A DNA stretch of 51,393 bases from an uncultured Candidatus Saccharibacteria bacterium (GCA_964500195.1 CAZCND010000001.1:1-51393), one strand, 5' to 3'; shown: positions 22,872 to 40,524, numbered from the stretch's first letter. Notes: a model not told the origin generated them from the letters alone. Translations and numbers: made by a program.

Positions 22872-22872
22872 A

Positions 22873-23451: not shown

Positions 23452-23458
23452 AAATATT

Positions 23459-24142: not shown

Positions 24143-24171
24143 ATACTAAAATTATATCACAGACAGATAAT

Positions 24172-24324: not shown

Positions 24325-24440
24325 AATATATTTTATGATTCTAGTCTTAACCAGAAATAATTAAATTAATAAAACTATTTTTAGTATAATCTTTTTAATT
24401 AAAATAAGCTACTATTTATTAAAAGAATTGTGTGTAAAAA

Positions 24441-24502
24441 CAAAAAACCACCCGAGGGCGGATTTTTGCCAACTGAAGCTATCTTGCGATAACGACTGCT
24501 GT
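24441..24502 (-). ncRNA. candidate ~60-nt small RNA
   Basis: Minus strand: TTGTTT, 16-nt spacer, TGTTATAAT (-10 at 24509-24514). Then hairpin GUUAUC-GCAA-GAUAGC (24478-24493, GNRA loop), then CCGCCC-UCG-GGUGG plus a U run (24441-24461). Confidence 0.35.
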
Positions 24503-24600
24503 CCAATTATTATAACAAGAAAAGAAAAAGAAACAAGCCAAATCTGTGGATAACTCAAACACCCTTTTGGCCTTATTTTATGGTATTATTTTATCCATAT

Positions 24601-25224
24601 ATGGACTTATTATTACTTTCACTGAAAGGTTTATTGATCGGATTATTTGTAGCTTTTCCTTGCGGACCCGTAGGTTTAATCTATATTAAGAGAGCAACAA
24701 CAGATGGGTTTTTGGCTGGTTTTGTCTCTGGTCTTGGTTTAGCCTTTGCACATCTTCTCTACGCGGTAGCTTTAGTTTTTGGTTATCTCGAAATATTAAC
24801 AATTTTCAATAATAATAAAAAAATTCTAATAATCATAAGTTCAATTTTTCTAATTGCCATAGGTTACATTATTTTTCGTACTAAGCAAAAAAAATTCTTC
24901 CGTTCAGAAATAAATAACTCTAAAACCCTTGTGGGTTTTTTCTTGTCAGCTTTTATAATAACCTTGGCCAATCCAATAGTTATTGTCCAATTCTCATTTT
25001 TCTTTTCTTTATTTAAAATCTTCTCTATTTCTAATTTAAAGGATTATCTTTTTTTAATCAACGGAATAGTAATTGGGTCTCTCTCGTGGCCAATCTTAAC
25101 TTCTTTAATTTTACCAAAGATTGGGCACAGACTTCCACCCACAAAATTGAACAATTTTCAAAAAATTATTGGACTTCTAATTATATTTAGTGGTTGTGCT
25201 TTTGCCCTAAGAGCTCTTATTTAA
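24601..25224 (+). CDS. LysE/RhtB-family amino-acid exporter
   Basis: About 6 TM helices and an N-terminal LLIGLFVAFPCGPVGLIYI motif typical of LysE-type translocators. An alternative start is at 24580. Confidence 0.7.
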   Translation: MDLLLLSLKGLLIGLFVAFPCGPVGLIYIKRATTDGFLAGFVSGLGLAFAHLLYAVALVFGYLEILTIFNNNKKILIIISSIFLIAIGYIIFRTKQKKFFRSEINNSKTLVGFFLSAFIITLANPIVIVQFSFFFSLFKIFSISNLKDYLFLINGIVIGSLSWPILTSLILPKIGHRLPPTKLNNFQKIIGLLIIFSGCAFALRALI

Positions 25225-25228
25225 GAAA

Positions 25229-26473: not shown

Positions 26474-26570
26474 AATTTCAAAATTAAAATAATTAAATTT
26501 CTAAATACTTATTTTTAAACCACTATATTGTAACCTATTTTTGAATTTTTTGTAATTAGGAATAGGTTCA

Positions 26571-26615
26571 AAAACACAAATGACTTATTTTTACAAATAA
26601 GTCATTTGTGTTTTT
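26571..26615. terminator. long perfect hairpin (about 20-bp stem), bidirectional terminator
   Basis: AAAACACAAATGACTTATTT TTAC AAATAAGTCATTTGTGTTTT. The 3' arm overlaps the stop of the DUF5320-like ORF. Confidence 0.7.
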
Positions 26616-26823
26616 ACTTTACAATTTCATCATCACTTTTTATTTTTTCCTCTTTCTTTTCTTCATTTTCTGATTTAGCTAAAAATGCTCTCCTTGTAAA
26701 GAATCTTCTTAAACCGATTCTATTCTTTTGTCCTCTGAAAAGATTAGAATTGCCACAATTACCCATTCCTCTCCCTGTCATTGGACCTTCTTCTCTTGGT
26801 CCCATTCCATTTAAATTGGCCAT
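26614..26823 (-). CDS. DUF5320-like small protein
   Basis: 69 aa; N-terminal GMGPREEGPMTGRGMGNCG matches the Gly/Met/Pro-rich DUF5320 pattern. Confidence 0.55.
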   Translation of the reverse strand: MANLNGMGPREEGPMTGRGMGNCGNSNLFRGQKNRIGLRRFFTRRAFLAKSENEEKKEEKIKSDDEIVK

Positions 26824-27065
26824 AATATTTATACAAAATTTTAGAAATAATTATTTCGACCTATTGTTCTTTATATTATGAATATATACCCATTATAAAA
26901 GAAAGTCAAGACCCTCATTAAAAAATAAGGCACAAAAGAGGCAGTCCTCATTACCTTTTAATTACATGGTTTTTATTTTAAACAAAATTCACAAAGAAAA
27001 ATTTTCTTGTATAAATATTAATAATTGCGATGGGTTTTTAATTTTTTTAAGTTTTTCTAACATCT

Positions 27066-27689
27066 TCAGATTGTAATCCCTAAAATATTTGATAATTCTA
27101 ATTTTAAAGATTCATTATCCTTATACAAAACTGGAACATATCCAATACTATATGCCCCTTTCAAAGATCTATAAGAATCATCTATAAACACAACTTCACT
27201 CGCTTTAACCTTTAATTTATCAAACAATATTTGGAAAATTTCTGGCTGAGGTTTTTGAAAACCAACTTCTGCGGAAATTATTATTTCATCAAATATATCT
27301 ATAATTCCATCTTCTTTTAATTTATTTCTTAATTCTGTTGAGTTATTACTAAGCAATGCTGTTTTGTATCCCTTTTCTCTCAAATCTTTTATAAATTCTA
27401 TTAATTCATTATTTAAATGATATTTTCCCTTATTAGACTTCAATAAATCTGAAGCGTGGTTTATTGCCTCTTCTCCTTCGTTAAATTTTGAAACTATCAT
27501 CTTAAAAACATCTTCAGATCTTACATTTTCTGTATTAAACAAATGGTTTACCTTAAAATACTCTCTTTCCCATTCTTCTTTAGTTATATTCAAATACTCA
27601 CAAATATCGGCAAACAGATCGTTATCATTTATCTTTATCACTCCTCCATAATCAAATACAATCACTTTAATACCTTCTCTCTTTTCCAT
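27066..27689 (-). CDS. HAD-superfamily hydrolase (subfamily IA-like)
   Basis: Motif I VIVFDYGGVI, motif II LLSNNS, motif III KPQPEIF, motif IV FIDDS. TGTTATAAT lies 7 nt upstream of the ATG. Confidence 0.8.
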   Translation of the reverse strand: MEKREGIKVIVFDYGGVIKINDNDLFADICEYLNITKEEWEREYFKVNHLFNTENVRSEDVFKMIVSKFNEGEEAINHASDLLKSNKGKYHLNNELIEFIKDLREKGYKTALLSNNSTELRNKLKEDGIIDIFDEIIISAEVGFQKPQPEIFQILFDKLKVKASEVVFIDDSYRSLKGAYSIGYVPVLYKDNESLKLELSNILGITI

Positions 27690-27865
27690 TTTTTTTATTA
27701 TAACATAAACATAAATTGTTTTTAATCTTTAATAGCTTCGATGTAAAGAAATGAGTACGAGATGTGTACCTCGGTAATACTTTAGCTGTTTTCTCATAAA
27801 ACTGCCAAAGTGTGTCATGATCCATAGTAAACTGTATTGGTGAAAAAAAATTTAAAAAATAAAGT

Positions 27866-28264
27866 CTAATTATTTTTTTTATACTCTTTTATTAATTCTA
27901 CATCTTTAAAATCCTTTTCCCCTCCAGATGCCATTTTAAATTTAAGGAGTTCTTCTATGTTCATAAAAGGAATACCGTCTATTAAAAAAGCTGTCTTAAT
28001 CGCTTCTTCTGTTGTTGTCTTATATTTATCCCAATTTAATTCACTATTAATCTCAAATGCATCCTTTTTTAAAAAAATCTTTCCATAATTTTCAAATTCT
28101 TCCCATTCTCCTGTTTTTCTTAATTTCTGGTGTAATTCTTTGGTAACTGATAAATCTATATCATTAGCTCTTCTAATTCCAAGAATATCCATTACCCCAC
28201 TACCAATAACAACATACTGGCCTTTTGGTAAATTTAATTCTTTAATTTTTTGGATTATGTTCAT
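27866..28264 (-). CDS. minimal nucleotidyltransferase (Pol-beta superfamily)
   Basis: 132 aa with GSGVMDILGIRRANDIDLSV (GS-x9-13-DxD) and a C-terminal ASGGEKDFKDVELI helix. Confidence 0.6.
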   Translation of the reverse strand: MNIIQKIKELNLPKGQYVVIGSGVMDILGIRRANDIDLSVTKELHQKLRKTGEWEEFENYGKIFLKKDAFEINSELNWDKYKTTTEEAIKTAFLIDGIPFMNIEELLKFKMASGGEKDFKDVELIKEYKKNN

Positions 28265-28269
28265 TAACT

Positions 28270-28545
28270 CTAGTTATAGAATTCTTTTACTTTTTCAATA
28301 AAAGACTCTAAATCATCAATATGAATTTTCATGTCTGAATAATCCCCCGAATTACCATTATACCTCAATCCTTCCCCAAAATTTACACCCTCACTACCAT
28401 CAAGCAAACTAGCTATATTTTTTACTTATCTACCACCAAATTCGCTACGAGAAATTTCCCCTAATCTCAAAAATCCTTCACTATCAACTTTTGATAAATA
28501 TTGTTCTTTAATTGTAGGTTGTTTAATAAATTTTTCTTGATTCAT
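28270..28545 (-). pseudogene. 91-codon ORF interrupted by an in-frame TAA, immediately upstream of the nucleotidyltransferase
   Basis: Encodes MNQEKFIKQPTIKEQYLSKVDSEGFLRLGEISRSEFGGR-TAA(28426-28428)-VKNIASLLDGSEGVNFGEGLRYNGNSGDYSDMKIHIDDLESFIEKVKEFYN in the same frame throughout. Ends 5 nt before the next ATG. Confidence 0.45.
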
Positions 28546-28689
28546 AATTAAATTATACTATAAGTTTGAACTTTTACAAAGGTAAGTCTTGTCCAACGCA
28601 GAATTACACCCAAATGGAAATCGATTCTAACGCAAAAGAAGCCCAAAAGGGCTTCCAAATGCGACGAATCAATGTATCATATTCAATAT

Positions 28690-28833
28690 ATGACAATGAA
28701 TACATACGATGATCATTTAGTAAGTGTCGCACAAATTAAAAAGTTTTCAAAACTTCATAATTGTGCAAAATTTAAAAGTAATAGTAGTAAGGTCGAAACA
28801 TATGGTTGGATAGAAAATAGTTTAGAAATGTAA
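28690..28833 (+). pseudogene. 47-aa stub resembling the N-terminus of a DDE transposase/integrase (tentative)
   Basis: MTMNTYDDHLVSVAQIKKFSKLHNCAKFKSNSSKVETYGWIENSLEM-stop. Flanked by similar hairpins GAAGCCCAAAAGGGCTTC (28638-28655) and GGAAGCCCAACAGGCTTCC (28860-28878). Confidence 0.25.
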
Positions 28834-29071
28834 AAGTAACTTTTTGAGTTAAAATACAAAGGAAGCCCAACAGGCTTCCTTGCTAATAATTTAGTAACAA
28901 AATAAAATCCAATATGTTATATTTTAAATAATAAAGTTCATCGACATATTGAAATCTAAATTGTCGCAAGTCGTGGTAAACAAAAGCGGGCTCTTTCTGG
29001 AGAAGAAGGAAAGAGAATATTTAGAGATAAAAAAAGAACTAACCGTCAACAATGGTCTGACGGTTCACGAG

Positions 29072-29098
29072 GGGTCACGTGTGGCCCTTCTTTTTTTT
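29072..29098. terminator. GC-rich hairpin plus T run
   Basis: GGGTC ACGTGT GGCCC followed by T8, preceded by a second hairpin AACCGTCA/TGACGGTT (29041-29065). Confidence 0.45.
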
Positions 29099-29144
29099 CT
29101 TAAATTTATTATTTCTCTTTTAGAAGATTCACAACGTGCACAAT

Positions 29145-29660
29145 TTAATCCAAGGTTAAAACTTCTTCTAGTTTGTATTCTATTATTTTTGCTGAGTATT
29201 CCGCATCGGATGGTCTGTCAAACAAGAAATATCCTTTAAATAATTTATCACCTAACAAAAGAGAAAACCAATATTCATCATCTGGCCACATTTGATAAAA
29301 AGGTATTTCATTAAAAGAAAACCAGTGTGGTTTCATTTCTTCTGTTTCTGTGGGTTCTCCAGTAAAATCTATTAATTTAAAAACATGAACCTCTAATACT
29401 TTCTCATCATTTTGGAACTTAAACTCAAGTACTCCCATCTTTTTAATACCCCATCTTTTATTCCAGATTCTTCGGTAGTTTCTCTCATCGCTCCTTCTTC
29501 AATTGTTTCTTTACCTTCAATTTTTCCTCCAAATCCATTCCACCTACCAACTCCAAAACTCCTCTTTTTCATACCAAGTAGGACTTTTTATCTTTTTCTT
29601 AGCGTTATTAATAGTGGCTGACCTTAATATTTCAATTTGGGGGACCGGTCATCCATTTAT
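29145..29660 (-). pseudogene. MTH1/NUDT1-like NUDIX hydrolase, frameshifted
   Basis: The C-terminal 97 aa are intact (MWPDDEYWFSLLL..KGYF). Upstream, another frame encodes [40 protein letters not shown] (complete Nudix box). The frames are separated by 1-nt indels in A5 runs at 29440-29444 and 29585-29589. Confidence 0.7.
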
Positions 29661-29680
29661 TTAAATTAAAGTTACAATAA

Positions 29681-30214
29681 TTATGCAAACAAGAAACCTT
29701 CCACACCATATGAGGTGACCCCAATTAAAAATGATGCAATCATTATTCCAATGATGATTGAAATAAGAATCTTATCAATAATTGTCTTTTTCTTACTTAC
29801 AAGAGAAAAAAATACAAATGAGATCAGCAACAGGAAAAAGGGTGGCTCATAAAAGATAGGTATAAAAGATAATGTATCTCTTATGGATAAATATTTTAAA
29901 GATTCTCTAATAAGATAAAAAAGGTCTATTAAAGAAAAGGCCAGTGGAATTAATAAAAAATAATTATTATCACCTAGTGAAGCCAAAACTTTATCCTTAA
30001 AACTTGGTTTTTTTAGAAAAGTTATTAATATAGCTACAAAAAGTAAAGAAAAGAAACTTATTAAGAAAAGGACTGATTCTTTATAAAGAGATTCAACATA
30101 AGAATCACCACCAAACAAATGCATGATAATTAAAGACAAAGGGATAAATCCCAAAATCACAAATATAATTTTTCTCCAATTAATTTTATTTTTTATTTTT
30201 AAATTTTCTTCCAT
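29681..30214 (-). CDS. polytopic membrane protein, unknown function
   Basis: 177-aa ORF with about 5 hydrophobic helices. Confidence 0.5.
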   Translation of the reverse strand: MEENLKIKNKINWRKIIFVILGFIPLSLIIMHLFGGDSYVESLYKESVLFLISFFSLLFVAILITFLKKPSFKDKVLASLGDNNYFLLIPLAFSLIDLFYLIRESLKYLSIRDTLSFIPIFYEPPFFLLLISFVFFSLVSKKKTIIDKILISIIIGIMIASFLIGVTSYGVEGFLFA

Positions 30215-30232
30215 CTTTTTTGTTTACTTAAT

Positions 30233-31051
30233 CTATTTATTTAAACAAGATGTTATAATATTTAGATTTTTCCAACCACAAATACCAGATTCTAGTTTTT
30301 CACAACGAACCTCTTCTTTCTTGTAACAACTGAAATTTGGCAATGCCGAACAACTAAAATCATTCTTAATCTCAAAATCTTTATCAACACAATCAACAAA
30401 ACCATCACAACTATCCATTTTTACCTTACAATCTTTGGATACCCAAAAACTTAGTTTAAATCCTATGTTGGATTGAAAATTATTTCTTAATGACCACTCA
30501 ATCATATTAGTACCGTCGGCAAAAACAGCTTCTTCGTATGCAGAAGTATTATCAACCCCAGCTTCTTCTAGTATTCTTAATTCTTCCAAACTCAGACAAT
30601 CTATACAATCCGACCCTAAAGATGTGGAATCATTATATTCACCCCCTGCATCTGAATAATCTATTTCTCCAACTTCTATTTCTTTGGTCTCGCTTGATTC
30701 CTCTTCAGTAATAACCTTAAGATAATCTTCATCAATTAGATCTGCATTTTCATTTCCTGAAAAAATATTATTAATATTAGATATTTTTTGAGGGTTATTT
30801 AAGAAGTAAACAAGTGACCCCCCCAACAGAACAACGAATAAAGAAACAACAATTAAAACAATCCCGACTTTTTTATTTTTCTTTTTTCCTATACCATCAA
30901 TGTTTTGAGCCGGTTGTTCAATTACTTTAAATCCTTGTTCTACCTCTTGTAATGTCCAATTACTAGATAAAAATTGATTTGTAATAATTTCTTTAGTTAA
31001 ACCTTTCTCTAATTGTTGTTTAATAAAATCTACTAATTCTTGATTTTTCAT
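30233..31051 (-). CDS. membrane-anchored Cys-rich protein, unknown function
   Basis: 272 aa: small N-terminal helical domain, one TM helix (VGIVLIVVSLFVVLLGGSLVYF), acidic linker, C-terminal domain with about 12 Cys. Confidence 0.55.
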   Translation of the reverse strand: MKNQELVDFIKQQLEKGLTKEIITNQFLSSNWTLQEVEQGFKVIEQPAQNIDGIGKKKNKKVGIVLIVVSLFVVLLGGSLVYFLNNPQKISNINNIFSGNENADLIDEDYLKVITEEESSETKEIEVGEIDYSDAGGEYNDSTSLGSDCIDCLSLEELRILEEAGVDNTSAYEEAVFADGTNMIEWSLRNNFQSNIGFKLSFWVSKDCKVKMDSCDGFVDCVDKDFEIKNDFSCSALPNFSCYKKEEVRCEKLESGICGWKNLNIITSCLNK

Positions 31052-31101
31052 ATTTTAATCATACCACTGTCTCATAGTGAAAGCGACATTCCAGAGACAC
31101 A

Positions 31102-31133
31102 GGTCGGTCGCTTTCACCAAATTTATCTGCTCC
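31102..31133. repeat. 32-nt direct repeat, copy 1 (distal att-like junction)
   Basis: GGTCGGTCGCTTTCACCAAATTTATCTGCTCC, identical to 40425-40456. Weaker similarity extends about 25 nt further left. An 11-bp hairpin GTGAAAGCGAC/GTCGCTTTCAC (31077-31117) overlaps it. Confidence 0.85.
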
Positions 31134-31187
31134 AAACTTGGGATGATGTTCGAGATGTTATAAAACAAGGAGATTAAAATAAGATAA

Positions 31188-31538
31188 TTATTCTATATTA
31201 GATCGCCAAGCTTTGACTAAATTAAAAATATTATTAATTAATTCGTCGGGTAAATTACTATTACCTATATTTTGTAATATTTCTTCTAGTGATTCAATAG
31301 CATAATTGTTGTAATCTTCATCAGGAATTTGATGATAAAGTTCTGCTATTTTTATTTCTGTTTTAATATTTATTATTTCTGATTCCTCTGGCTTTTTAGA
31401 AGCTTCAATATCAGCTTCACTGTGAAGTTTATCAACATATTTCAATAGTAACTCATTATTCTCAACATTATTTTTTTTAAAAAATTCAATAATATCTTTT
31501 TCGTTTATATTTTTTATAGGGTTAATCTGTTCATTCAT
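31188..31538 (-). CDS. acidic hypothetical protein (116 aa)
   Basis: ORF with TATAAT 6 nt upstream of the ATG; no motif recognised. Confidence 0.5.
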   Translation of the reverse strand: MNEQINPIKNINEKDIIEFFKKNNVENNELLLKYVDKLHSEADIEASKKPEESEIINIKTEIKIAELYHQIPDEDYNNYAIESLEEILQNIGNSNLPDELINNIFNLVKAWRSNIE

Positions 31539-31555
31539 CTTTTAATTATATAATA

Positions 31556-31668
31556 GGTTCGAATTTATACAAAGATAGCAAAAATAACCCTTACAAATTA
31601 AGGCTCAAAATTTTGCTCCGAACTTGCCTCACTAATATGCTACGGCCAATGGGGAGAATGTCCGAGAA
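31556..31668. repeat. junction repeat, copy with 25-nt insert
   Basis: GGTTCGAATTTATACAAAGATAGCAAAAATAACCCTT..AAAATTTTGCTCC | GAACTTG[25-nt insert]GGGAGAATGTCCGAGAAAG. Same arms as 32293-32379. Confidence 0.8.
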
Positions 31669-31695
31669 AGTATGTTGGATAAATGAAAAATAATT

Positions 31696-31929
31696 CTAAT
31701 TTTTAAACCATTCTTTTTGATCTATACCAGATTGCAAAATAATACCTTTTAAAGTTCTAGGTTTAATAGATTTATTTCCATGGAAAGGCACACAAACATT
31801 TCTTAAAATTCCCTTCTGATACCCAACGTAGTAAAAATGACTTGCGTTTGTATAATTAAGCTTAAATCCATTTCCCTTTAAAAAAGATTCTATATCTTTA
31901 AATGTCCAATTAAAAAATCTTTTTGGCAT
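31696..31929 (-). CDS. hicA: HicA-like mRNA interferase toxin
   Basis: 77 aa; FLKGNGFKLNYTNASHFYY...VPFHGNKSIKPRTLKGIILQSGI matches the HicA pattern (GSH..., PxH, ...gtl..Il.q.gi). Confidence 0.65.
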   Translation of the reverse strand: MPKRFFNWTFKDIESFLKGNGFKLNYTNASHFYYVGYQKGILRNVCVPFHGNKSIKPRTLKGIILQSGIDQKEWFKN

Positions 31930-31937
31930 TATTGTTA

Positions 31938-32243
31938 TTACACAGTTGAAAATCCATACATATTTATTAAATATGGAGATTTAATTGGTTTAAGAGAGTT
32001 AATATTTGACCAAAGCTTTTCATATTCTTGATCAGATTGTTGATTTAATGACTGGAAACGTGAACCCTTTATTTTCTTTGCTGATTCAATATATCCATTT
32101 ACTGCTTGAAGTAAATTAAAAAAAGCAAGTTTAGGATCATCACTTGACTCAACAATATTAAATTCAAGAGCCACAGCATACCATGTGTCACCATCTTTAA
32201 AAACTATATATCTAAAGGTTCCCTTTGTTGGTGTATTCATCAT
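31938..32243 (-). CDS. hicB: HicB-like antitoxin
   Basis: 101 aa; the N-terminal FRYIVFKDGDTWYAVALEFNIVESSDD looks like the HicB/UPF0150 fold. Lies 8 nt upstream of hicA, with TGATATAGT 6 nt before the ATG. Confidence 0.55.
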   Translation of the reverse strand: MMNTPTKGTFRYIVFKDGDTWYAVALEFNIVESSDDPKLAFFNLLQAVNGYIESAKKIKGSRFQSLNQQSDQEYEKLWSNINSLKPIKSPYLINMYGFSTV

Positions 32244-32292
32244 TTTATTACTATATCATAATAAGATAAAAAATAAAATACTATGATTCAAT

Positions 32293-32379
32293 GGTTCGAA
32301 CTTCGTAAAAGGTAGCAAAAATAATCCTTATAAATAAGGGTTAAAATTTTGCTCCGAACTTGGGAGAATGTCCGAGATG
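32293..32379. repeat. junction repeat, compact copy
   Basis: GGTTCGAACTTCGTAAAAGGTAGCAAAAATAATCCTTATAAATAAGGGTTAAAATTTTGCTCC | GAACTTGGGAGAATGTCCGAGATG. Nested hairpin AGCAAAA/TTTTGCT plus ATCCTT/AAGGGT. Confidence 0.8.
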
Positions 32380-32419
32380 TTATTTTGTAAAATAATAGAT
32401 AAATGATATTATTTAAATT

Positions 32420-32893
32420 ATGAAAACCAATATTTATATAGATGGAAATAATTTATATCGCTCTGCTAAGGAACTTGGTTTTGAAATAGATTATAAAAAG
32501 TTTCGTGTCTGGTTATCTCAAAAATATAATACAAAGAACATTTTTCTATTTATAGGATATCTGGAGAATAGAAAGGAATTTTATAATTATCTTAAAAATT
32601 GTGGTTTTGAATTAATCTTTAAAGAAGCAGTTTTACACGAAGGAAACATTAAGGGAAATTGTGATGCCGAACTTGTATTAAAATCTGTTGATGATTATCA
32701 TTTGAAAAATTTTGATAAATTTATACTTATTTCCAATGATGGAGATTTTGGTTGTCTTGTAGAATTTTTAATAAATAAAAATAGACTAGAGATTATACTC
32801 TCTCCAGATAAAAATAAGTGCTCTATTTTACTTAGAAATAAAACAAATAAAATCTTATACTTAAATGAGATTTATAAAAAATTCTCTAAATAA
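32420..32893 (+). CDS. NYN/LabA-like (PIN-related) domain protein
   Basis: 157 aa with NIYIDGNNLY, CDAELVLKSVDD and ILISNDGDFGCLVEFL acidic motifs of NYN nucleases. Confidence 0.7.
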   Translation: MKTNIYIDGNNLYRSAKELGFEIDYKKFRVWLSQKYNTKNIFLFIGYLENRKEFYNYLKNCGFELIFKEAVLHEGNIKGNCDAELVLKSVDDYHLKNFDKFILISNDGDFGCLVEFLINKNRLEIILSPDKNKCSILLRNKTNKILYLNEIYKKFSK

Positions 32894-33005
32894 AACACCT
32901 AAAAAGAAAAAGCTCCCGGTATGGGCGCACCCATACAAGGATCTCTTTCATAATGATATTAGTATTATAGCAAGCAGGTTGTTAAAGTCAATAGGTTTCG
33001 ATTTG

Positions 33006-33070
33006 GGTTCGAACTTCTACAAAAGGTAGCAAAAATAACCCTTGATAAATAAGGTTTAAAATTTTGCTCC
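33006..33070. repeat. junction repeat, left arm plus core only
   Basis: GGTTCGAACTTCTACAAAAGGTAGCAAAAATAACCCTTGATAAATAAGGTTTAAAATTTTGCTCC, followed by a different right side. That side contains a GCAGGTCGGTCACTTTGAG piece (33145-33163) related to the 32-nt repeat. Confidence 0.75.
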
Positions 33071-33190
33071 CTCGGTCGGTTCAGAAACTTGACCTCTCAA
33101 ATGTTGTAAGGACCTTTGAGCTACTTTTGAAGTGGGATTTGGATGCAGGTCGGTCACTTTGAGTGGATAGAGTGGACACTATAAAAAGAA

Positions 33191-33607
33191 CTAAATAATC
33201 TTATGTTTTTTAAAAGCATTACATCTTTTGCATGCAATTCTTAGATTAGATATATCATTTGATCCAAAACTTTGGGCTGGAACCTTCTTACCATTTTGGG
33301 GTTTCATTTTTCTTAACTTTTTGTTTAATTCATTAGTAGAAAGTGGAATATAATGATCAACATCAAAAACCTTCTCTTTACTGCAATCTTTATGAATATT
33401 TAACTGGCATTTCTTTCCATATTTAGAAACCAGTTTTTTGAAAATATCATTTCTAATTTTATTAAACTCTTCTCTTTTTATCTTAGGATCTCTAAAATCA
33501 AACATCTTACGATATTTTTTCTCAAATATAAGAGCATCACCTTTTGCTAATTTATTTAAAAAAAAATTATAATCTTCTTTGTATTCAAAGATATCCATGA
33601 GCTTCAT
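33191..33607 (-). CDS. HNH endonuclease
   Basis: 138 aa with DVDHYIPLS ... NLRIACKRCNAFKKHK (HNH/His-Me finger). Confidence 0.7.
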   Translation of the reverse strand: MKLMDIFEYKEDYNFFLNKLAKGDALIFEKKYRKMFDFRDPKIKREEFNKIRNDIFKKLVSKYGKKCQLNIHKDCSKEKVFDVDHYIPLSTNELNKKLRKMKPQNGKKVPAQSFGSNDISNLRIACKRCNAFKKHKII

Positions 33608-33663
33608 TTTATAATAATCTCACTATAAAATCTATTAAAAATAATGATTTAGTAGAACAACTA

Positions 33664-33924
33664 ATGCAATTGGTAGATAAGATAGATATTGATGAATTTG
33701 AAGCAAGAGAGAAGATTCAAGAAGAGATAAATAAATACAAGCAGTTTAGCTATGCAGTTCTAGGAAGAGAGACAGAGTTTGATAAAAAAACGATTGAGGC
33801 AGATATGAGGAATTATATAAAGCATGTACTTAAAACGGGTACCAAGGATCAAAAAAGGGAGATTCTGGGGTGTTTAAAGAGTGAGGTGGTGGTGTTAGAT
33901 AAGAAGATTTTACTTAAAAATTAA
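33664..33924 (+). CDS. small hypothetical protein (possible recombinase C-terminal remnant, very tentative)
   Basis: 86-aa ORF. The tail KDQKREILGCLKSEVVVLDKKILL is reminiscent of the extreme C-terminus of large serine recombinases, but no catalytic domain is present. Confidence 0.3.
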   Translation: MQLVDKIDIDEFEAREKIQEEINKYKQFSYAVLGRETEFDKKTIEADMRNYIKHVLKTGTKDQKREILGCLKSEVVVLDKKILLKN

Positions 33925-34625
33925 AATATCACTTGAGTAATTATTCCAAAATCATTTTCTAAAATTTCCTTAATCTTAACCTTATTTTCATTTGGTTTTA
34001 TCTGACAATCTGCAGAAAGACACTCTAAATCTTTCTCATTTAATTTATTAGGAATGATTAGATTAATTTCTAAATCATCCTTTGTGATTTTTATTCCTGG
34101 TTCTATATTTATAAAATACTCATTAAAAATTCTTCCGAGTTCATTATGTGTAAGCTCTTGAATTTCAGAAGCCATTTGATCATATTCTTCTATTTTTTTA
34201 TTAAATTCTTCTTCTAAAATTAAAATTCCACTGGCATGACCAAAACTATTATTCCTATACCTTATAATCTTTTTACACTTTTTTACAATTGGATCACATG
34301 CTTTTAATATATTCAGTAATTCAAAAATAGAACTTTCTGGAAATTCTGATAAGCTCCATATTGTTTTTGATTCTCTATGTAATTTTCTTTTATCTTCAGG
34401 AGATTGTATTAAAACATCATTAAATCTATCTGGCATCCATATTTTAGTTTTAAATATAGTTTGATATATAAAACTCATAAATAGTAAATGATACGCAAAA
34501 AGAGCTAAATGATATGAATTATTATTTTGAGCATAAGTAAATTGTTCTATTAATCCATAAACATAATTTCTCTCTTCTTCACTATCATATTTTATAGAAA
34601 GATAAGAAAAAATAGATGAATTCAT
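33921..34625 (-). CDS. HEPN-like (Rx5H) protein, last gene of the R-M operon
   Basis: 234 aa, predicted mostly helical, with RYRNNSFGHASG matching the HEPN R-N-x-x-x-(x)-H motif. Starts 6 nt after the upstream gene. Confidence 0.5.
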   Translation of the reverse strand: MNSSIFSYLSIKYDSEEERNYVYGLIEQFTYAQNNNSYHLALFAYHLLFMSFIYQTIFKTKIWMPDRFNDVLIQSPEDKRKLHRESKTIWSLSEFPESSIFELLNILKACDPIVKKCKKIIRYRNNSFGHASGILILEEEFNKKIEEYDQMASEIQELTHNELGRIFNEYFINIEPGIKITKDDLEINLIIPNKLNEKDLECLSADCQIKPNENKVKIKEILENDFGIITQVIF

Positions 34626-34631
34626 AAATAA

Positions 34632-35240
34632 TTAAATACGATCAACATTCCCACACTTAGGACAAGTTACTGTTTTACTTCCAAGAGCTGTGAGTAAACT
34701 AATACTTGTGTAATCATTATTTTTTACGAAAAATCCATAACCGCATTTGCTACATTTATGATAGCTATCTAAATATAATCCTCCAACCAAAGAATTGTCA
34801 CACACATCTAAACCAACATGATTAGGAGACACGGTTAGCGGACCGATTGTTTTATTAAGTGATATCTTTTCTTCTTCTAATCTAGATATAGCTTTTTCAA
34901 TTTCCTTTTTTTGTTCAGTTGAACTTTTTTCCAAATCTTTTCTATAAACATCAATCAAGTTATTAATTTTTACTTCTACTTCATTGGCTTGTTTCTCTCT
35001 CTTTTCTATAATAGTCTTCTGGCTAGCAAGAAATTCTTCAAAATTTTTCTTATATTGATCTCTATCAGATTCTAATTTTTCTTTATAATCTTTATTTTGT
35101 CTATAAACTATAATAGTGGCAAAAATCGCTAATACTGTGAAGAGAACAGCTAATGTTCCAACCATTAACCCATATGGATTTGTCCAAAGACTTAATTGCT
35201 GGTTTGTTTTTTCTAATATTTGTATATATTGTTCTTCCAT
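34632..35240 (-). CDS. membrane-anchored coiled-coil protein with C-terminal zinc ribbon, unknown function
   Basis: 202 aa: TM helix GLMVGTLAVLFTVLAIFATIIVY, about 85 aa of K/E-rich heptad-like region, and a C-terminus with CSKC...27 aa...CPKC. Confidence 0.6.
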   Translation of the reverse strand: MEEQYIQILEKTNQQLSLWTNPYGLMVGTLAVLFTVLAIFATIIVYRQNKDYKEKLESDRDQYKKNFEEFLASQKTIIEKREKQANEVEVKINNLIDVYRKDLEKSSTEQKKEIEKAISRLEEEKISLNKTIGPLTVSPNHVGLDVCDNSLVGGLYLDSYHKCSKCGYGFFVKNNDYTSISLLTALGSKTVTCPKCGNVDRI

Positions 35241-35246
35241 ATAATT

Positions 35247-37781
35247 TTATTCCTCCCAAAGCTTACTTATAACTTCCTTGGTTTTTTGTTCATAAATTTC
35301 AATCAGTTTTTTAGATGATTCAACTAATTCTATTTCTTTTTCTATTTTTTCTACAATTTGTTTTTGAATTTCAAGAGGAGGAACAGGAATTTTAATTTTA
35401 TTCAATATTCCTATAGGTAATTGAGGTTGAGCACTACCTGATATAAAATTATTGACTTGTTCATTAAATTTTATAGAGTTGAGGAATAATAATAAAAATC
35501 TTGGTAAAATTTTTTCTAAATTACTTCTCAAAAGTACCATACCAGAATTAATTCTAATATTATCAAAAGATATATCTTCAGAATAATAAGCTGTATTTCC
35601 TATCGTCCCACGTGTAGTTAAAACAACATCATATTTATCGAGTTTTCCCTTTCTAAGAATTTTATCTTTTTCTTTTGTTATAAAATCACAATTTGAAAAA
35701 TTAAAAGTGCCCCTCCTAACATTACTAGTATTTAAAAATAGACAATATCCTTCACTTTTAAAATCTTCCTTTTTAGGATAGTTAACCCCTCTATCACCAT
35801 CTATTATTTGAAACACTTTAGAATCTCCAAGAAACACTTCTTTGTAATTTAGATCAATATCAATTTTAGGTTTCCAATTTTCAGAAATTTGCCTTGCTCC
35901 ATCTATAATTTTTTGATACCCATCTAATTCAGCAACAATTTGCTCTTGAATTTCAAGAGAAGGAAGAGGAAAAGAAAGTCTTCTTAAGTCACTGTTTGAT
36001 AAATGTAATATATTTGCACCTTTAACATATTTTGATAATTCTACTTTTAAAGGAGGGTTACTTATAAGTAATGCTAAGTAGTCTGATAATATATGCTTGT
36101 TTTTTGTTCTAATTACATTTATATCTCCGCCAATTATTACATTATTCTCATTTAATGATCTTGCAACTGCTATCCCCATTGCATCTGCAGTTGTAGTCGC
36201 TGGAACTAAAACATCACCCTTTAATGATTTAATCTTTCCATTAAAATTTGTTGTGCTAAAGATATTTTTTATAATTGGATTATATAATGTATATATTTCA
36301 CCATAATGAATACATTTATTTTCTCCATTCTCTATTAAATCACTTTTTGATAACCCTTGGCCTTTTAGTAATTCAATTTTTTTGTCTTTTTCCAGCTCTT
36401 CAATTTTAACCATTGGCCATTTTGTATTTGAATAATCTTTCACTTCTCTATATCTATCACCAGAAAGATTAAAATCTTCACTTTCTAAAATCTTTTTTCT
36501 CTCTACATATAAAGCAATTTTACTTTCTAATTTTTTACCAGATTTCCATTTTTTAAATATTTCTATTGCTTCTGGAATATCGTTTTTATCTATTGGCCTC
36601 CTTTGTGCACCTAAATTAAATCCATCATTTTCAATCTTAAGAAATAGTATTTCTTTTTTGTTCTTAGCAATCTCATTATCAAATATTAAAATACTCGTTT
36701 TTACTCCTGCATAAGGATTAAACACTCCACTAGGAAGACTGATAACGGCACAAAGGCCATCTTTTACTAGATTTTCTCGAAGTTTCTTGTGTGCTGTAGC
36801 AGATTGAAAAATAATACCTTCTGGGACAATTATACCAGCTCTACCTTTTGGCCTTAAATGATTCATTATATAATCCACAAAGAGAACCTCACTTCTATTT
36901 GATTGAACACTAAATTTACTATGAGTTTTCACTCCACCCTTAGGACTCATAAAAGGAGGATTGGCTAACATCACATCAAACTTCTCATTCCACTTTTCCT
37001 CCATAGTAAGAGTGTCATAATTGTAAATCTTTGGATCTTTAAACTGGTGGAGATACATATTTACCTGTGCAATACGAACCATTCCAGGATCTATGTCATA
37101 TCCCTCAAAATTCTCTATGAGTTTCTTTCTCTGATCTGGAGTAAGAGGCTTTTCATTGTTTTTTTTTCCATCTTTATCTTTTCCATTATGTTGTTCTAAT
37201 ATATGTTTATAAGCACTAATAAGGAATCCACCAGTACCACAAGCAGGATCAAGAACCTTGTCATCCTTTGTCGGATCAACAATCTCAACCATAAAATCAA
37301 TAATATGTCTTGGTGTCCTAAACTGTCCTGCATCTCCTTGACTCCCCATTATAGAAAGAAGGTATTCATAAGCATTTCCAAGTTCTTCAGGGTGAGAATA
37401 GTCAAAATAATTTATTTCTTTCAAGAAAAGCCCTAGAACTTCTGGGGCTCTATATGGAAGAAAAGCTGATTTAAAAATATTTCTAAATAGTGAAGGAAGT
37501 TGTTTTGCTTGAGAGAATTTAATTAGTGCTTCAGAATATAAATTCATTCTTTCTTGATTACCAATACGAGAATCCATAAGTTTAGTCCAAGAATATTTTT
37601 CTAAATCGCCAACAAAGAAAGAGGGCTTACCTCCAACCTTAATGGCTGATTGGTCCATATCATCCATAAACTTATAAATCAAAGCATTTGTTATTTGTTC
37701 TATTTGAGAAGTAGGATTTGGAACAACTCCAACAAGCACTTGGCGAGCACTATCTATATGTCTTTTTGTATCTATGTTCAT
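35247..37781 (-). CDS. hsdM: type I restriction-modification methyltransferase fused to specificity subunit (HsdM-HsdS)
   Basis: N-terminal ~450 aa carry FRTPRHI, DPACGTGGFL (motif I) and ANPPF (motif IV). C-terminal ~390 aa form two TRD-like halves, each ending in an HsdS conserved helix (LPSLEIQEQIVAELDGYQKII; VPPLEIQKQIVEKIEKEIELV). Confidence 0.8.
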   Translation of the reverse strand: MNIDTKRHIDSARQVLVGVVPNPTSQIEQITNALIYKFMDDMDQSAIKVGGKPSFFVGDLEKYSWTKLMDSRIGNQERMNLYSEALIKFSQAKQLPSLFRNIFKSAFLPYRAPEVLGLFLKEINYFDYSHPEELGNAYEYLLSIMGSQGDAGQFRTPRHIIDFMVEIVDPTKDDKVLDPACGTGGFLISAYKHILEQHNGKDKDGKKNNEKPLTPDQRKKLIENFEGYDIDPGMVRIAQVNMYLHQFKDPKIYNYDTLTMEEKWNEKFDVMLANPPFMSPKGGVKTHSKFSVQSNRSEVLFVDYIMNHLRPKGRAGIIVPEGIIFQSATAHKKLRENLVKDGLCAVISLPSGVFNPYAGVKTSILIFDNEIAKNKKEILFLKIENDGFNLGAQRRPIDKNDIPEAIEIFKKWKSGKKLESKIALYVERKKILESEDFNLSGDRYREVKDYSNTKWPMVKIEELEKDKKIELLKGQGLSKSDLIENGENKCIHYGEIYTLYNPIIKNIFSTTNFNGKIKSLKGDVLVPATTTADAMGIAVARSLNENNVIIGGDINVIRTKNKHILSDYLALLISNPPLKVELSKYVKGANILHLSNSDLRRLSFPLPSLEIQEQIVAELDGYQKIIDGARQISENWKPKIDIDLNYKEVFLGDSKVFQIIDGDRGVNYPKKEDFKSEGYCLFLNTSNVRRGTFNFSNCDFITKEKDKILRKGKLDKYDVVLTTRGTIGNTAYYSEDISFDNIRINSGMVLLRSNLEKILPRFLLLFLNSIKFNEQVNNFISGSAQPQLPIGILNKIKIPVPPLEIQKQIVEKIEKEIELVESSKKLIEIYEQKTKEVISKLWEE

Positions 37782-37789
37782 AAATTATT

Positions 37790-40366
37790 TTAATTCATAT
37801 AAGTATTAAGTGATACATAATCCCTTACATAACTTGGAACAACCTCTCTAAAACCATTTAATCTTTGATACTCCTCGAAATCAAAAGCTGGGCAATTATA
37901 AAATCTCGCTAATTCATTACTCTTTATTATATCGCGAACTTCTTCATCTACAATATATGCTTTGAAAAAGCTTTTAACTGAAGCGTAATGTTCCTGATCT
38001 ACTGGATTTATTTCGGTGAATTTACTCCATTCTGATTCAAGTAAATCATCTTTCATTTCAAAACTATCTTTTTGACCAAAAGCTACTTGTAGAAATTCTC
38101 TTACACTTACATTTCTATCAAGAGAAAAAGCTTTTTTGATTTTATCTAAATTTAAGAAATGGCTTGGCTTATTAAATATATGAGTTTTTGTATATTCTTC
38201 AGCTCCTATTTCATCTCCATTATTCCAAAGGTTAGACAATACTTCATTTGATAACACATCCTCTTGAACAGCTCTTTTGAATCCTTCTCTATCTATTCTC
38301 ATACCACTTTCTCCAATAACTGATTCATTTATTGTTTTTATGTTATCATTTGTAGCAAGATCAATATTACCTTCCCACTTATCTATACCAGTAGGTCCAT
38401 CTCCACCAATACCTGTATCTATAGGTGGTTCTATTTCTGTTGTTCCTCCAGGTCTAGGTAATCTTATTTTTTCATCATAAGGAAATTCATTCTCGAAATA
38501 TTCACAGGTAGCAAAATAGTCGAAGAATTTAAACTTTTCTTTATTTTTAGATACAATATCATTATTTTCGTAATCTCTATATTCAAAAGTATATTTACGA
38601 GTTCCTCTACCTTTTATCTGAACAAAGTCAGAAGGACTAAATACAGGTCTCATAAGAGCTATGTTTAAAAGATCCTGACAATCGTAACCAGTAGTCATCA
38701 TTCCAACAGTTACAGCCACACGAGTTTTACTTGAATCATATCCCTCTGGTTTCTTAACCTTTCCACCAAGTTTATTATTAAAATCTGAAAAGTTGATAGT
38801 CATTTGCTGAGCATCCTTAACCTGAGAAGTTACTTGCATAGCAAAATCTGATTCATAATATAAGTCAGGCCACTTTTCCATAGCCAACTTATTTAAAATA
38901 TTTGTTATTTTTGCAGCATGATTTTGAGATACACAAAAAACAATAGATTTACCAAAAAGTTTTACTCCTAAACTATCAGCAACAGGATCAAGAAATCCAT
39001 TATCAAGAAATGCCTTACACATAACCACATTAGTTTCTTCATTAAAAAGTTTCTTTTCATATTGTTTTTCTGTAAAGATTTCTTCAGAGATATCTCCATT
39101 TTCAATATCTTTCTTTTTTATAGATAGCCCTTGATCAGAAAGTAATTGAGTGGTTATTTCTGTTCGAGCATCTATAACAACAGGATTAATAAGAAATCCA
39201 TCTTTCACACCAGAGAGAAGATCATATCTAAATGTAGGTTCTCCTGAATCACAGCCAAAAGTTTTATATGTATCTAATAACTGTCTTTTTTCAAACTCTC
39301 TTTGTGTGTCTAATCCTTTGTCATCAAAACCTCTCAAATAATCTTTAGGTGTCGCAGTTAATCCAAGTTTATAACCTACAAAATACTCAAACACAGCACG
39401 AGAATTTCCACCAATAGAACGATGTGCTTCGTCTGAAATAACTAATTCAAAATCTGTAGGAGAAAATTCCTTTTTATATCTATCACCAGCTTGAAATGTT
39501 TGTATTGTAGAAACAACAATGTGGGCATTAGTCCAAGAATCTCGAGCATCCTTATATATCACACAGTTATAATCTTTTCCTAAATAATTTTTAAATGCTT
39601 TATATGCTTGATCTTCGAGTTCTAATCTATCGACTAAAAATAAAATTCTGCGAGCATTACCAGATTTCAAAAACAATCGAATAACTCCAGCTGAAATCAA
39701 TGTCTTACCCGTACCTGTGGCCATTTCAAAAAGAAATCTATTTTTATTTTCTTTTGCACTATTTTGAAGAGCCTTAATTGCTTGAACCTGATATGGTCGC
39801 ATTTGTTTAAGATTATTTTCTTTAAGAAATTTATTGCGAGTACTCTCATCTAAAAACATTGGATCACTGGAGTAATTGGGCATCTGTGATTCAATAATGT
39901 AATTCTCATCAATAGAAGTGTTAGCGAGCTCTAATGGGTTTGGAATATAAGTCTCATATTGGGTTATAGATTCTTGGGTAGGAAACCTAGAAATAGTATC
40001 AGGGTTTCCATGTTTTGTGTCCCAGAAATAATGAATATTCCCATTTGAAAGAATAATAAAGCGAGCTCCAACATTACGAGCATATACTTTTGCTTGTTCT
40101 TTAGCCGAAAGTGGATTAATGGATTCTCTTTTAGCCTCAACAACCACAAGTGAACGACCATTTTTATCTAATAAAAGAAAGTCAATAAACCCTTGTCCTT
40201 GATTTTCAAAATCATCTCCAAGTTCTTTATATCTAACACCTGGCTCAAGTTTTATATTTGCTTTACCTTTTTCAGAATCTTCAAATCTCCACCCTGATTC
40301 TTCAAGAAGTTTATTAATTTTTATTCTTGCAGAAGCTTCTTTATTGGAATTCATATATAAAGTCAT
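37790..40366 (-). CDS. hsdR: type I restriction enzyme R subunit
   Basis: 858 aa: N-terminal PD-(D/E)xK-type nuclease region FIDFLLLD..VVVEAKRE, SF2 motif I EMATGTGKT, motif II VISDEAHRS, and a long C-terminal helical domain. Confidence 0.85.
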   Translation of the reverse strand: MTLYMNSNKEASARIKINKLLEESGWRFEDSEKGKANIKLEPGVRYKELGDDFENQGQGFIDFLLLDKNGRSLVVVEAKRESINPLSAKEQAKVYARNVGARFIILSNGNIHYFWDTKHGNPDTISRFPTQESITQYETYIPNPLELANTSIDENYIIESQMPNYSSDPMFLDESTRNKFLKENNLKQMRPYQVQAIKALQNSAKENKNRFLFEMATGTGKTLISAGVIRLFLKSGNARRILFLVDRLELEDQAYKAFKNYLGKDYNCVIYKDARDSWTNAHIVVSTIQTFQAGDRYKKEFSPTDFELVISDEAHRSIGGNSRAVFEYFVGYKLGLTATPKDYLRGFDDKGLDTQREFEKRQLLDTYKTFGCDSGEPTFRYDLLSGVKDGFLINPVVIDARTEITTQLLSDQGLSIKKKDIENGDISEEIFTEKQYEKKLFNEETNVVMCKAFLDNGFLDPVADSLGVKLFGKSIVFCVSQNHAAKITNILNKLAMEKWPDLYYESDFAMQVTSQVKDAQQMTINFSDFNNKLGGKVKKPEGYDSSKTRVAVTVGMMTTGYDCQDLLNIALMRPVFSPSDFVQIKGRGTRKYTFEYRDYENNDIVSKNKEKFKFFDYFATCEYFENEFPYDEKIRLPRPGGTTEIEPPIDTGIGGDGPTGIDKWEGNIDLATNDNIKTINESVIGESGMRIDREGFKRAVQEDVLSNEVLSNLWNNGDEIGAEEYTKTHIFNKPSHFLNLDKIKKAFSLDRNVSVREFLQVAFGQKDSFEMKDDLLESEWSKFTEINPVDQEHYASVKSFFKAYIVDEEVRDIIKSNELARFYNCPAFDFEEYQRLNGFREVVPSYVRDYVSLNTYMN

Positions 40367-40424
40367 TTTCCCACATTTTTACCTTTTTTACAATTATATA
40401 GCAAAAGAGACCTTCCCAGACGTG

Positions 40425-40456
40425 GGTCGGTCGCTTTCACCAAATTTATCTGCTCC
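40425..40456. repeat. 32-nt direct repeat, copy 2 (tRNA-proximal att-like junction)
   Basis: Identical to 31102-31133. Positions 40453-40456 are the last 4 nt of tRNA-Asn. Confidence 0.85.
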
Positions 40457-40524
40457 CCGGGTAGGGATCGAACCTACGACCTTAGAGTTAACAGCTCTCT
40501 GCTCTACCGCTGAGCTACCGGGGA
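40453..40524 (-). tRNA. tRNA-Asn (anticodon GTT)
   Basis: Reverse complement TCCCCGGTAGCTCAGCGGTAGAGCAGAGAGCTGTTAACTCTAAGGTCGTAGGTTCGATCCCTACCCGGGGAG, with anticodon loop CTGTTAA. No CCA is encoded. Confidence 0.9.

Follow-up and report, generated by a model that had tools for sequence, protein, structure and literature searches.

A probable tRNA-Asn-anchored hotspot in Patescibacteria composed of a decayed serine-recombinase island and an array of recombinase-less mini-cassettes

Introduction

A 51,393-nt stretch of DNA from an uncultured Candidatus Saccharibacteria bacterium (GCA_964500195.1, CAZCND010000001.1:1-51393), referred to below in its whole length as the window, raises the question of how the genes between its tRNA-Asn gene and a HAD hydrolase gene came to stand there: as one island, as cassettes acquired singly, or as both, and by the action of which recombinase. 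The answer proposed here, to which we give a probability of about 0.6, is that the region is a tRNA-Asn-anchored hotspot of Patescibacteria (Candidate Phyla Radiation, CPR) consisting of a decayed serine-recombinase island with a type I restriction-modification (R-M) system and of a mini-cassette array that has no recombinase of its own. The initial annotation, made from the sequence alone, had described the interval from tRNA-Asn to the HAD hydrolase as a cassette-style accessory region, and in this it was right.

The window has a G+C content of 31.6%, and its RNase HII is nearest to proteins named Paceibacterota, Minisyncoccia or Nomurabacteria, from which it follows that the organism belongs to the Patescibacteria. 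These bacteria have tiny genomes with few recognised mobile elements, and their gene exchange is poorly understood. In the literature searched, neither cassette arrays of an attC-like kind or at tRNA-Asn nor a hotspot of this sort turned out to be described for CPR.

Anatomy of the junction sites

The junctions between the genes of the region (J0 to J3, Table 1) are read here on the minus strand, which is the direction of tRNA-Asn and of most genes. In this direction a composite site of ~95–115 nt consists of a 5' arm, the hexamer GGAGCA, a variable palindromic hairpin and a 3' box, in short TTCGAAC-ATCATCCCAAGTTC-GGAGCA, variable hairpin, CCTTTGTAGAAGTTCGAACC. The consensus from about 30 copies is (a)TTCGAAC ATCATCCC AAGTTC GGAGCA for the 5' arm plus core and CCTTTGTAGAA GTTCGAAC C for the 3' box, which in short form is GTAGAAGTTCGAACC and is often followed by TGnTAnAAT and a start codon. 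The hairpins fall into the classes Y1, Y2 and others. Y1, the commonest, has the form AAAATTTTAAGCCAT..ATGGTTATTTTTGCT, and its inner stem is preserved by compensatory variants (CCAT/ATGG, CCTT/AAGG, CCCT/AGGG). Y2 is an imperfect palindrome of ~45 bp (GATAAATTTGGTGAAAGCGACC, a 16-nt spacer, then GGTCGCTTTTAC) with a covariation of C-G to T-A. RNAalifold gave no consensus structure for 13 full sites because the MAFFT register is not structure-aware. A sub-threshold Rfam likeness to the plastid psbA 3'UTR hairpin (E 0.12) was treated as chance.

The three junctions at 31551-31667, 32288-32378 and 33003-33070 had been grouped together from a left arm common to them, and they are indeed one family (nhmmer E 1e-18 to 1e-19). 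The "right arm" adjoining TGCTCC (GGAGCA on the minus strand) is found at 31128-31155 (E 6e-8) and 32350-32378 (E 2e-7), and a 25-nt insertion interrupts it at 31614-31667; the right side of the third junction does differ, as had been noticed. The insertion reads CATTGGCCGTAGCATATTAGTGAGG on the minus strand and is identical in three related contigs (L002, L003 and L004). The partial left arm further downstream is supported, with weak significance, as the 3' box (28558-28582) of a degenerate site (3'-box model E 0.004). The weak right-arm copy proposed for 27733-27768 has to be dropped: it has no match to the arm model at E<10 and only one 8-mer in common with it.

The window also has a perfect 32-mer, GGTCGGTCGCTTTCACCAAATTTATCTGCTCC, which occurs exactly twice (31102-31133 and 40425-40456), just as had been annotated, and in none of 100 shuffles. 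Beyond the 32 nt the two copies stay homologous to ~58 nt with 84–88% identity, and a third, partial copy (AAAGTGACCGACC) lies at 33148-33160. The part of this repeat that had been taken for a "chromosomal left arm", hence for a unique flank, is Y2. Outside the window, L002 and L003, three copies of Y2 are found behind cassette arms in L006, an unrelated metagenome-assembled genome (MAG), and a partial one in L014; Y2 is therefore a member of the family rather than a unique flank. Each member of the 32-nt pair is GGAGCA joined to the left half of Y2; one stands after the tRNA gene, the other after the last mini-cassette.

Linkage to tRNA-Asn

The second copy of the 32-mer covers the last 4 nt (GGAG) of the tRNA-Asn gene on the minus strand, as the initial annotation had stated, and this end together with the following CA gives the GGAGCA core common to all junctions. 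The connection is not confined to the window. For example, in L008 and L022 an intact tRNA-Asn runs directly into GGAGCA and Y1, and in L012 tRNA-Asn is followed after ~170 nt by a clearly decayed tRNA 3' piece (..cgtagaggaagattccctacccggGGAGCA) and then by Y1. In four lineages a site is fused to, or stands beside, the 3' end of tRNA-Asn. Between the intact tRNA and the decayed direct 3' fragment of L012 (positions 6940-7000) there is in addition an inverted T-arm plus acceptor of tRNA-Asn (GTAGGGATCGAA..), which suggests repeated rearrangement at this gene. Relatives with a 79%-identical RNase HII have an identical tRNA-Asn, and their contigs end or diverge right after GGAGC. Variation starts past GGAGC with tRNA-Asn intact in the window, L008, L012, L022, L041-L044 and L053. 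The product of the gene upstream of tRNA-Asn (window 40622-41173) is of low complexity, rich in Asn, Tyr and Thr, and has a conserved membrane segment at its C terminus (GFLP..WQW..ILIL); the gene has an ortholog in a Nomurabacteria MAG (L008, 1766-2560), and the upstream side of the tRNA gene is thus syntenic, the downstream side variable.

A further arm, Z (33071-33146), contains three blocks collinear with tRNA-Asn and ends in GGAGCA. The statistics of this likeness are weak (p about 0.06 for the window, p 0.01–0.02 for the L002 and L039 alleles), and neither ARAGORN nor Rfam calls a tRNA there; Z is possibly a decayed tRNA-Asn copy. The idea that the common 5' arm, too, is a decayed tRNA-Asn 3' end was given up, the likeness not being significant beyond GGAGCA. 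The arm variant of L019 is nearer than the common arm to the T-arm-to-3'-end part of tRNA-Asn (p about 0.02). When the 3' end of tRNA-Asn was itself used as the pattern, the matches were 31 phage tRNA genes, all unrelated and lacking both sites and recombinase homologues.

Arrays in other genomes

An exact-pattern scan of 185,579 species genomes, one genome per species, matched 10 stretches, of which seven are true members of the family, with one locus per genome. Six of the seven are labelled as Patescibacteria-type MAGs (a Saccharibacteria MAG, Nomurabacteria, two Paceibacterota and Patescibacteria among them) and one as a Cytophagales bin, which is likely a mis-binned CPR contig. Metagenome and look-up loci add L002-L004, L017, L022, L032, L039 and L052. 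Altogether at least 12 contigs besides the window contain the repeat family, and nearly all of these are Patescibacteria by label or by inference.

Within seven loci 44 sites were counted (window 6, L002 4, L006 7, L011 7, L014 9, L052 6, L019 5). All 44 have the orientation of the other sites in their locus, and they are spaced 0.4–1.7 kb apart. The intervals hold single small genes, and about nine in ten of the open reading frames (ORFs) between sites run the same way. The cargo across arrays includes NUDIX, VOC, CYTH and HD proteins, nucleotide kinases, NADAR, a serine hydrolase, peptidases, NYN and HicAB. No further copy of the site is present in the other ~45 kb of the window.

Several observations on these loci should be mentioned. 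L019 carries, at 4329-7916, a diverged array with five co-oriented copies of the 5' arm AAAACAGGTTCTAACATCGTCCCGCCAGGGGAGC(A/T). In four genomes (L002 2455-2510; L006 3730-3790; L014 past the site at 7631; L052 11440-11500) different cassette genes have in front of them a conserved leader or promoter motif, TTGAC(T/A)..AAATGTAAT(G/A)TGAAAGAAAAA(T/C)A..TATAAACCC, which may be a shared cis-regulatory element. An exact copy of the VOC-family cassette protein of L011 is not on record; its homologues in L045 and L047 lie outside arrays. Scans of viral contigs with the Y1 and 5'-arm patterns gave no matches.

Gene content changes at the junctions

Comparison with close relatives bears out the proposal that the junction repeats mark changes of gene content between strains. 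In the JGI contig L002, identity with the window is 98–100% across hicBA, the gene for the 116-aa orphan and three of the junctions, the hicB-like/hicA cassette being identical there and in L004. The slot between J3 and J2, however, holds NYN in the window and a 205-aa gene in L002; the 5' arm and hairpin of J2 also differ, and 100% identity returns at GAAGTTCGAACC. Window and L002 part ways again right after the J0 palindrome, and in the interval from J0 to HAD both L002 and L003 have other genes (165 aa, 175 aa, 149 aa and CYTH). The exact 116-aa protein is found, besides, in JGI 3300035208, JGI 3300037067 and Logan SRR8925806. A three-way alignment of the window, L002 and L039 shows all three to be alike from 33186 to GTTCGAACC and to diverge immediately past it. 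L039 has a one-cassette array with NYN as its only and last cassette, in which the 5' arm and GGAGCA are followed by unrelated sequence.

Similar exchanges are seen among more distant loci. One cassette, its 5' arm included, adjoins Y2 in L006 but Y1 in L032, homology stopping at GGAGC, and a NUDIX cassette common to L006 and L014 is alike as far as the middle of Y2. Judged from these alignments, exchange points would lie at both edges of the hairpin and at its apex.

The same mosaics might be produced by a non-autonomous repeat of the miniature inverted-repeat transposable element (MITE) or repetitive extragenic palindrome (REP) type that has gathered in one region, with gene differences arising by ordinary homologous recombination. 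A repeat of ~100 nt with inverted termini and an internal hairpin would suit such an element, breakpoints at several positions within the repeat are what homologous recombination would give, and most arrays are without an adjoining recombinase. We nevertheless regard this explanation as unlikely. Clustering, uniform orientation (for 44 of 44 sites the chance is about 2^-37), one locus per genome in the species-wide scan and the lack of copies elsewhere in the window argue against a dispersed REP or MITE. Moreover, target-site duplications were not seen in these loci, it is the genes between copies that are polymorphic rather than the presence or absence of the repeat, and in several lineages the repeat is fused to the 3' end of tRNA-Asn.

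A probable decayed serine-recombinase island

A scan of viral contigs with the left half of Y2 led to L053, a contig from the same metagenome as L003. It has the identical tRNA-Asn followed by GGAGCA, Y2 and then a 12-kb island, the genes of which encode two DNA methylases, a HepT-like and a ParB-like protein, others, and a large serine recombinase of 460 aa with all three domains above the Pfam cut-offs (Resolvase 76.9 bits, Recombinase 39.3, Zn_ribbon_recom 33.5). At the far end of L053 stands GACTCAAAGTGACC..GCATCCAAAT, after which come an arm of the Z type, GGAGCA and a Y2-like left half. In tblastn, residues 361–460 of this recombinase match the window at 33622-33924 with 70% identity (E 2e-40), which identifies the "86-aa ORF" there as the 3' relic of an L053-type recombinase gene. 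The HNH gene sits where the N-terminal 360 codons are missing. The statement of the initial annotation that no integrase is visible was therefore wrong: the C-terminal relic of a large serine recombinase is present, and the intact gene is found in L053. The nearest relative of this recombinase in IMG/VR (L054, 46% identity) has neither sites nor a tRNA in its slice.

The R-M block (33191..40366) is absent from L002 and L039, which have Peptidase_S51/HIT instead. In the window it is bracketed by AAAGCGACCGACC (40425-40437) and by the partial repeat copy at 33148-33160, both of the form AAAG[C/T]GACCGACC, and the hybrid sites flanking the island share only 8–13 bp. Recombining their outer and inner halves gives, as the site of the element, a nearly symmetric palindrome of ~45 bp; near-symmetric palindromes of this size are the form expected of serine-recombinase att sites. 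The predicted attP of the island is CCACTCAAAGTGACCGACC joined to CACGTCTGGGAAGGTC. Because of the bracketing repeats, the symmetric element site and the relic, we read 33148-40450 as a decayed serine-recombinase island. Since the homology of the relatives returns at 33186 and the intact island of L053 has the same end, the R-M unit is more likely ~7.3 kb long (33148-40437) than the 9.3 kb between the 32-mers that had been suggested at first. It should also be noted that L053 has Z-GGAGCA-Y2-like where the window has Z-GGAGCA-Y1...5' arm-GGAGCA-Y2; although the L053 copy is diverged (19/24) and lies at a contig end, the pair looks, in this alignment, like an empty and an occupied site.

The longer unit would follow if the 32-nt repeats were attL and attR of a single tRNA-targeted island of 9.3 kb, all the content of which arrived in one event. 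The geometry fits, the repeats are perfect over 32 nt and only 84–88% identical beyond, and the "X-arm plus Y2" site that would be needed as attP is present in L006. This explanation is improbable all the same: the inner part (Z, J3 to J0) is found, its junctions unchanged, in L002 and L039, where Peptidase_S51/HIT takes the place of R-M/HNH upstream of Z, so that the 9.3 kb are not one unit; the recombinase island of L053 ends at the Z structure and not at an X-arm/Y2 junction; and Y2 is a member of a multi-copy family.

Map of the region

The coordinates of the features are collected in Table 1. Pfam agrees with the earlier gene calls, i.e., the 116-aa orphan, HicA with a HicB-like ORF (the latter without a Pfam hit), NYN, HNH and the type I R-M system. 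No family match in Pfam, NCBIfam or PADLOC was obtained for the 116-aa orphan, and no informative one for the 202-aa and 234-aa island proteins.

Table 1. Features of the window from tRNA-Asn to the HAD hydrolase gene, in the direction of the tRNA gene.
Feature	Position	Strand	Description	Support
tRNA-Asn (GTT)	40452/3..40524	-	intact	ARAGORN; Rfam 66.3 bits
Y2 copy A	40398..40450	-	directly after tRNA; GATAAATTTGGTGAAAGCGACC, spacer, GGTCTCTTTTGC	E 2e-20
Cargo of decayed island	33191..40366	-	five genes listed below	Pfam, PADLOC
HsdR	37790-40366	-		
HsdM-S fusion	35247-37781	-		
202-aa unknown	34632-35240	-		
234-aa unknown	33921-34625	-		
HNH	33191-33607	-		
Large serine recombinase relic	33622..33924	+	C-terminal ~100 codons; catalytic domain missing	
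Distal island end	33071..33186	-	Y2-like left half CCACTCAAAGTGACCGACC (33148-33165), then arm Z; kept in L002, L039, L053	
Junction J3	33003..33070	-	GGAGCA, Y1 hairpin, 3' box GTAGAAGTTCGAACC	nhmmer E 2e-19
Cassette 1	32380..33002	.	NYN nuclease (32420-32893, + strand, inverted), own terminator	Pfam
Junction J2	32288..32378	-	full site: 5' arm ATCTCGGACATTCTCCCAAGTTC, GGAGCA, Y1 hairpin, 3' box	
Cassette 2	31696..32243	-	toxin-antitoxin pair, hicB-like (31938-32243) and hicA (31696-31929)	Pfam HicA_toxin
Junction J1	31551..31667	-	full site; 5' arm with 25-nt insertion (31627-31651)	
Cassette 3	31188..31538	-	116-aa orphan gene	
Junction J0	31074..31155	-	5' arm, GGAGCA, Y2 copy B	E 6e-8 (arm); E 2e-19 (Y2 copy B)
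Older decayed variable part	27733..31051	-	272-aa, 177-aa, NUDIX, degenerate site, decayed ORF, 132-aa gene	Pfam
HAD hydrolase	27066-27689		bounds the older variable part	

The arms of Y2 copy B are a perfect 11 bp (GTGAAAGCGAC/GTCGCTTTCAC), and J0 is followed by an extended -10 box, TGGTATGAT, and then by the 272-aa gene. A strong sigma-70-like promoter (TTGACT, 16 nt, TGcTATAAT; 32964-32991) stands just past the 3' box of J3 and is aimed along the array, antisense to the inverted NYN gene. In the older part the NUDIX gene (29145-29572) is a frameshifted pseudogene of two overlapping ORFs (97 aa and 59 aa), and ~500 nt at 28600-29100 are free of ORFs and contain several G+C-rich hairpins of terminator-like look (e.g., GGAAGCCCTTTTGGGCTTCC and GGAAGCCCAACAGGCTTCC), for which Rfam gave weak chance matches only. 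Outside the region, a 12-nt periodic repeat at 48875-49042 lies within a minus-strand coding region and encodes a Lys/Ala-rich (AKKxAKK-type) low-complexity tail.

Proposed mechanism

The hotspot would consist of two layers. The first (33148-40450) would have been formed when the R-M island was inserted at the palindromic Y2 site that immediately follows the tRNA gene; this island is now probably immobile because its recombinase gene survives only as a 3' relic. The second (about 31074-33070, with older debris down to 27.7 kb) would be a mini-cassette array without a recombinase, each mini-cassette comprising one gene or gene pair, often with an extended -10 promoter of its own. Cassettes, circular or otherwise mobilised, would be inserted, lost and exchanged by site-specific recombination at the junction sites. 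New units would enter at the GGAGCA/hairpin behind the tRNA gene, or behind a tRNA-like pseudo-copy, and older ones would be shifted downstream. Catalysis would have to be in trans, and a serine recombinase of the type encoded by the neighbouring island is the sole candidate seen. What the sequences show is the site family in co-oriented clusters, the replacement of cassettes between strains, the tie to the tRNA gene, and a recombinase relic with its intact homologue; site-specificity, the enzyme responsible and the position of strand crossing are what we infer from the loci compared.

Some findings weigh against this mechanism. In slices of 8–20 kb around the arrays L006, L011, L014 and L052 no recombinase was found, so that the link between serine recombinase and cassettes is one of co-location in one lineage. 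Breakpoints are at three places (after GGAGCA, at the Y2 apex and at the 3' box) and do not define a single crossover; since breakpoints of similarity must fall at the edges of the repeats whatever the mechanism, the crossover is not fixed by them, and homologous recombination among the repeats could yield the same mosaics. The terminal boxes of the sites can form 5–7 of 7 pairs and show no covariation, with 5.8 pairs within a site against 5.77 across sites. The array of L052 is flanked by murJ and lepA and has no tRNA-Asn in its vicinity, i.e., the tRNA-Asn anchor is frequent, not obligatory. And the NYN gene is also found outside any array, in L049-L051, which have no sites.

Comparison with known systems

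Composite arrays of the staphylococcal cassette chromosome (SCC), SCCmec and psiSCC, are moved by the large serine recombinases CcrAB and CcrC. Like SCC elements, the units described here are integrated at the 3' end of a conserved housekeeping gene that is left intact, accumulate in tandem and have at every junction a short core containing the last bases of the target gene. Many of them are also without a recombinase and would need one in trans, the class here again being large serine recombinase. Unlike in SCC, the target is a tRNA gene rather than rlmH, the host is a CPR bacterium, the junctions are structured, ~100 nt long and have a variable palindrome, and the units are mostly single genes of 0.4–1.7 kb, compared to elements of 10–60 kb.

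Prophages and integrative elements of the phiC31, Bxb1 and TP901-1 type also use large serine recombinases. The ~45-bp imperfect palindrome Y2 resembles their att sites in size and symmetry, and the two hybrid sites of the island have, as in these elements, only 8–13 bp in common. However, such elements usually leave no arrays of ~100-nt repeats and usually do not lie at tRNA ends. The tycheposons of Prochlorococcus are reportedly tRNA-targeted genomic islands in tandem. As in these, a streamlined genome has, immediately past a tRNA gene, a hotspot with stacked elements and cargo-only satellites with tRNA-end-like repeats between units, and metagenome assemblies break at the site. But here the statistically supported sharing with the tRNA is confined to GGAGCA, the units are far smaller, and the recombinase is of the serine rather than the tyrosine type.

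A further likeness in layout is that to integrons. Clusters of attC sites without an integrase are known as CALINs (Cury 2016; Neron 2022; PMC9024848). As in integrons and CALINs, co-oriented single-gene cassettes are each followed by an imperfect palindromic site of 60–140 nt with conserved ends (AAC...GTT) and a variable centre, the content differs between strains, the cargo consists of toxin-antitoxin pairs and small enzymes, and no integrase is nearby. The region might therefore be taken for an integron remnant, the junctions being attC sites and a tyrosine integrase being encoded elsewhere in the genome. The attC-like build (inverted terminal 7-mers ..AAC/GTT.., spacers of ~5 nt, variable hairpin, 95–115 nt), the position of the site after each co-oriented ORF and a cargo typical of integron cassettes are in favour of this. 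It is, however, quite unlikely. TTCGAAC/GTTCGAA has two mismatches each to RYYYAAC/GTTRRRY, of 15 sites 12 have AAC and 10 have GTT, and the lack of covariation between the terminal boxes counts here too. The most conserved element, the internal AAGTTCGGAGCA, has no attC counterpart; a conserved GGAGCA within the site is common with the tRNA end; the array begins at a tRNA gene and not at attI/intI; and many cassettes contain promoter-like boxes. Apart from a serine recombinase, no recombinase was seen in the system. The scan for a tyrosine recombinase of the Phage_integrase type covered all ORFs of at least 50 aa at 27–41 kb that were plausible as genes, most of the bigger ORFs in the rest of the window, the largest ones of L006, L008, L011 and L014, and 10 ORFs of L053; it found none, although a CALIN would not need one. 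With no IntI found, boxes off consensus and no box covariation, the attI x attC label of the initial annotation fails.

The junctions might instead serve expression only: a promoter and a terminator hairpin, possibly joined by an RNA-processing signal resembling a tRNA, would travel with horizontally acquired genes and play no part in DNA recombination. A T-run after the hairpin, an extended -10 (TGnTAnAAT) 0–25 nt past the 3' box at many sites, Y2 copy A terminating in the TATAAT box upstream of hsdR and the sub-threshold likeness to a 3'UTR stability hairpin are consistent with this. It is, however, very unlikely: it leaves unexplained why the 5' arm of 28 nt and the 3' box are 80–95% conserved between distant CPR classes when the hairpins vary, and likewise the strict clustering, the linkage to tRNA-Asn and the replacement of cassettes at sites. 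Rfam, moreover, has no family matching the junctions at the gathering thresholds or at E<=10 (only tRNAs and 16S were hit). The junctions probably double as terminator and promoter modules, and such a role, compatible with a mobile cassette array, may be an added function rather than a rival.

By analogy, then, the hotspot seems to work like an integron or SCC array and to be a member of neither, the likeness to Ccr being one of recombinase class.

Significance

A conserved family of sites between co-oriented single-gene cassettes, present in several lineages of CPR, would be a sign that these bacteria gain and lose genes by a dedicated route. One could go further and see in it an undescribed, integron-like capture system of Patescibacteria, in which recombinase-less single-gene cassettes, each with a promoter of its own and a terminator-like palindromic site, are taken up behind the GGAGCA end of tRNA-Asn or its pseudo-copies by a large serine recombinase acting in trans on the hairpins, with cassettes common to different CPR classes; this wider proposal is tentative, and we consider it possible rather than probable. 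If true, the principle of the cassette array would be widened beyond integrons with their tyrosine recombinase IntI and SCC with Ccr, the new form being a new type of site and a serine recombinase at a tRNA gene. The sites account for the breaking of MAG assemblies at tRNA-Asn, and the GGAGCA arm together with GTAGAAGTTCGAACC provides a sequence handle with which the flexible gene pool of CPR can be mined.

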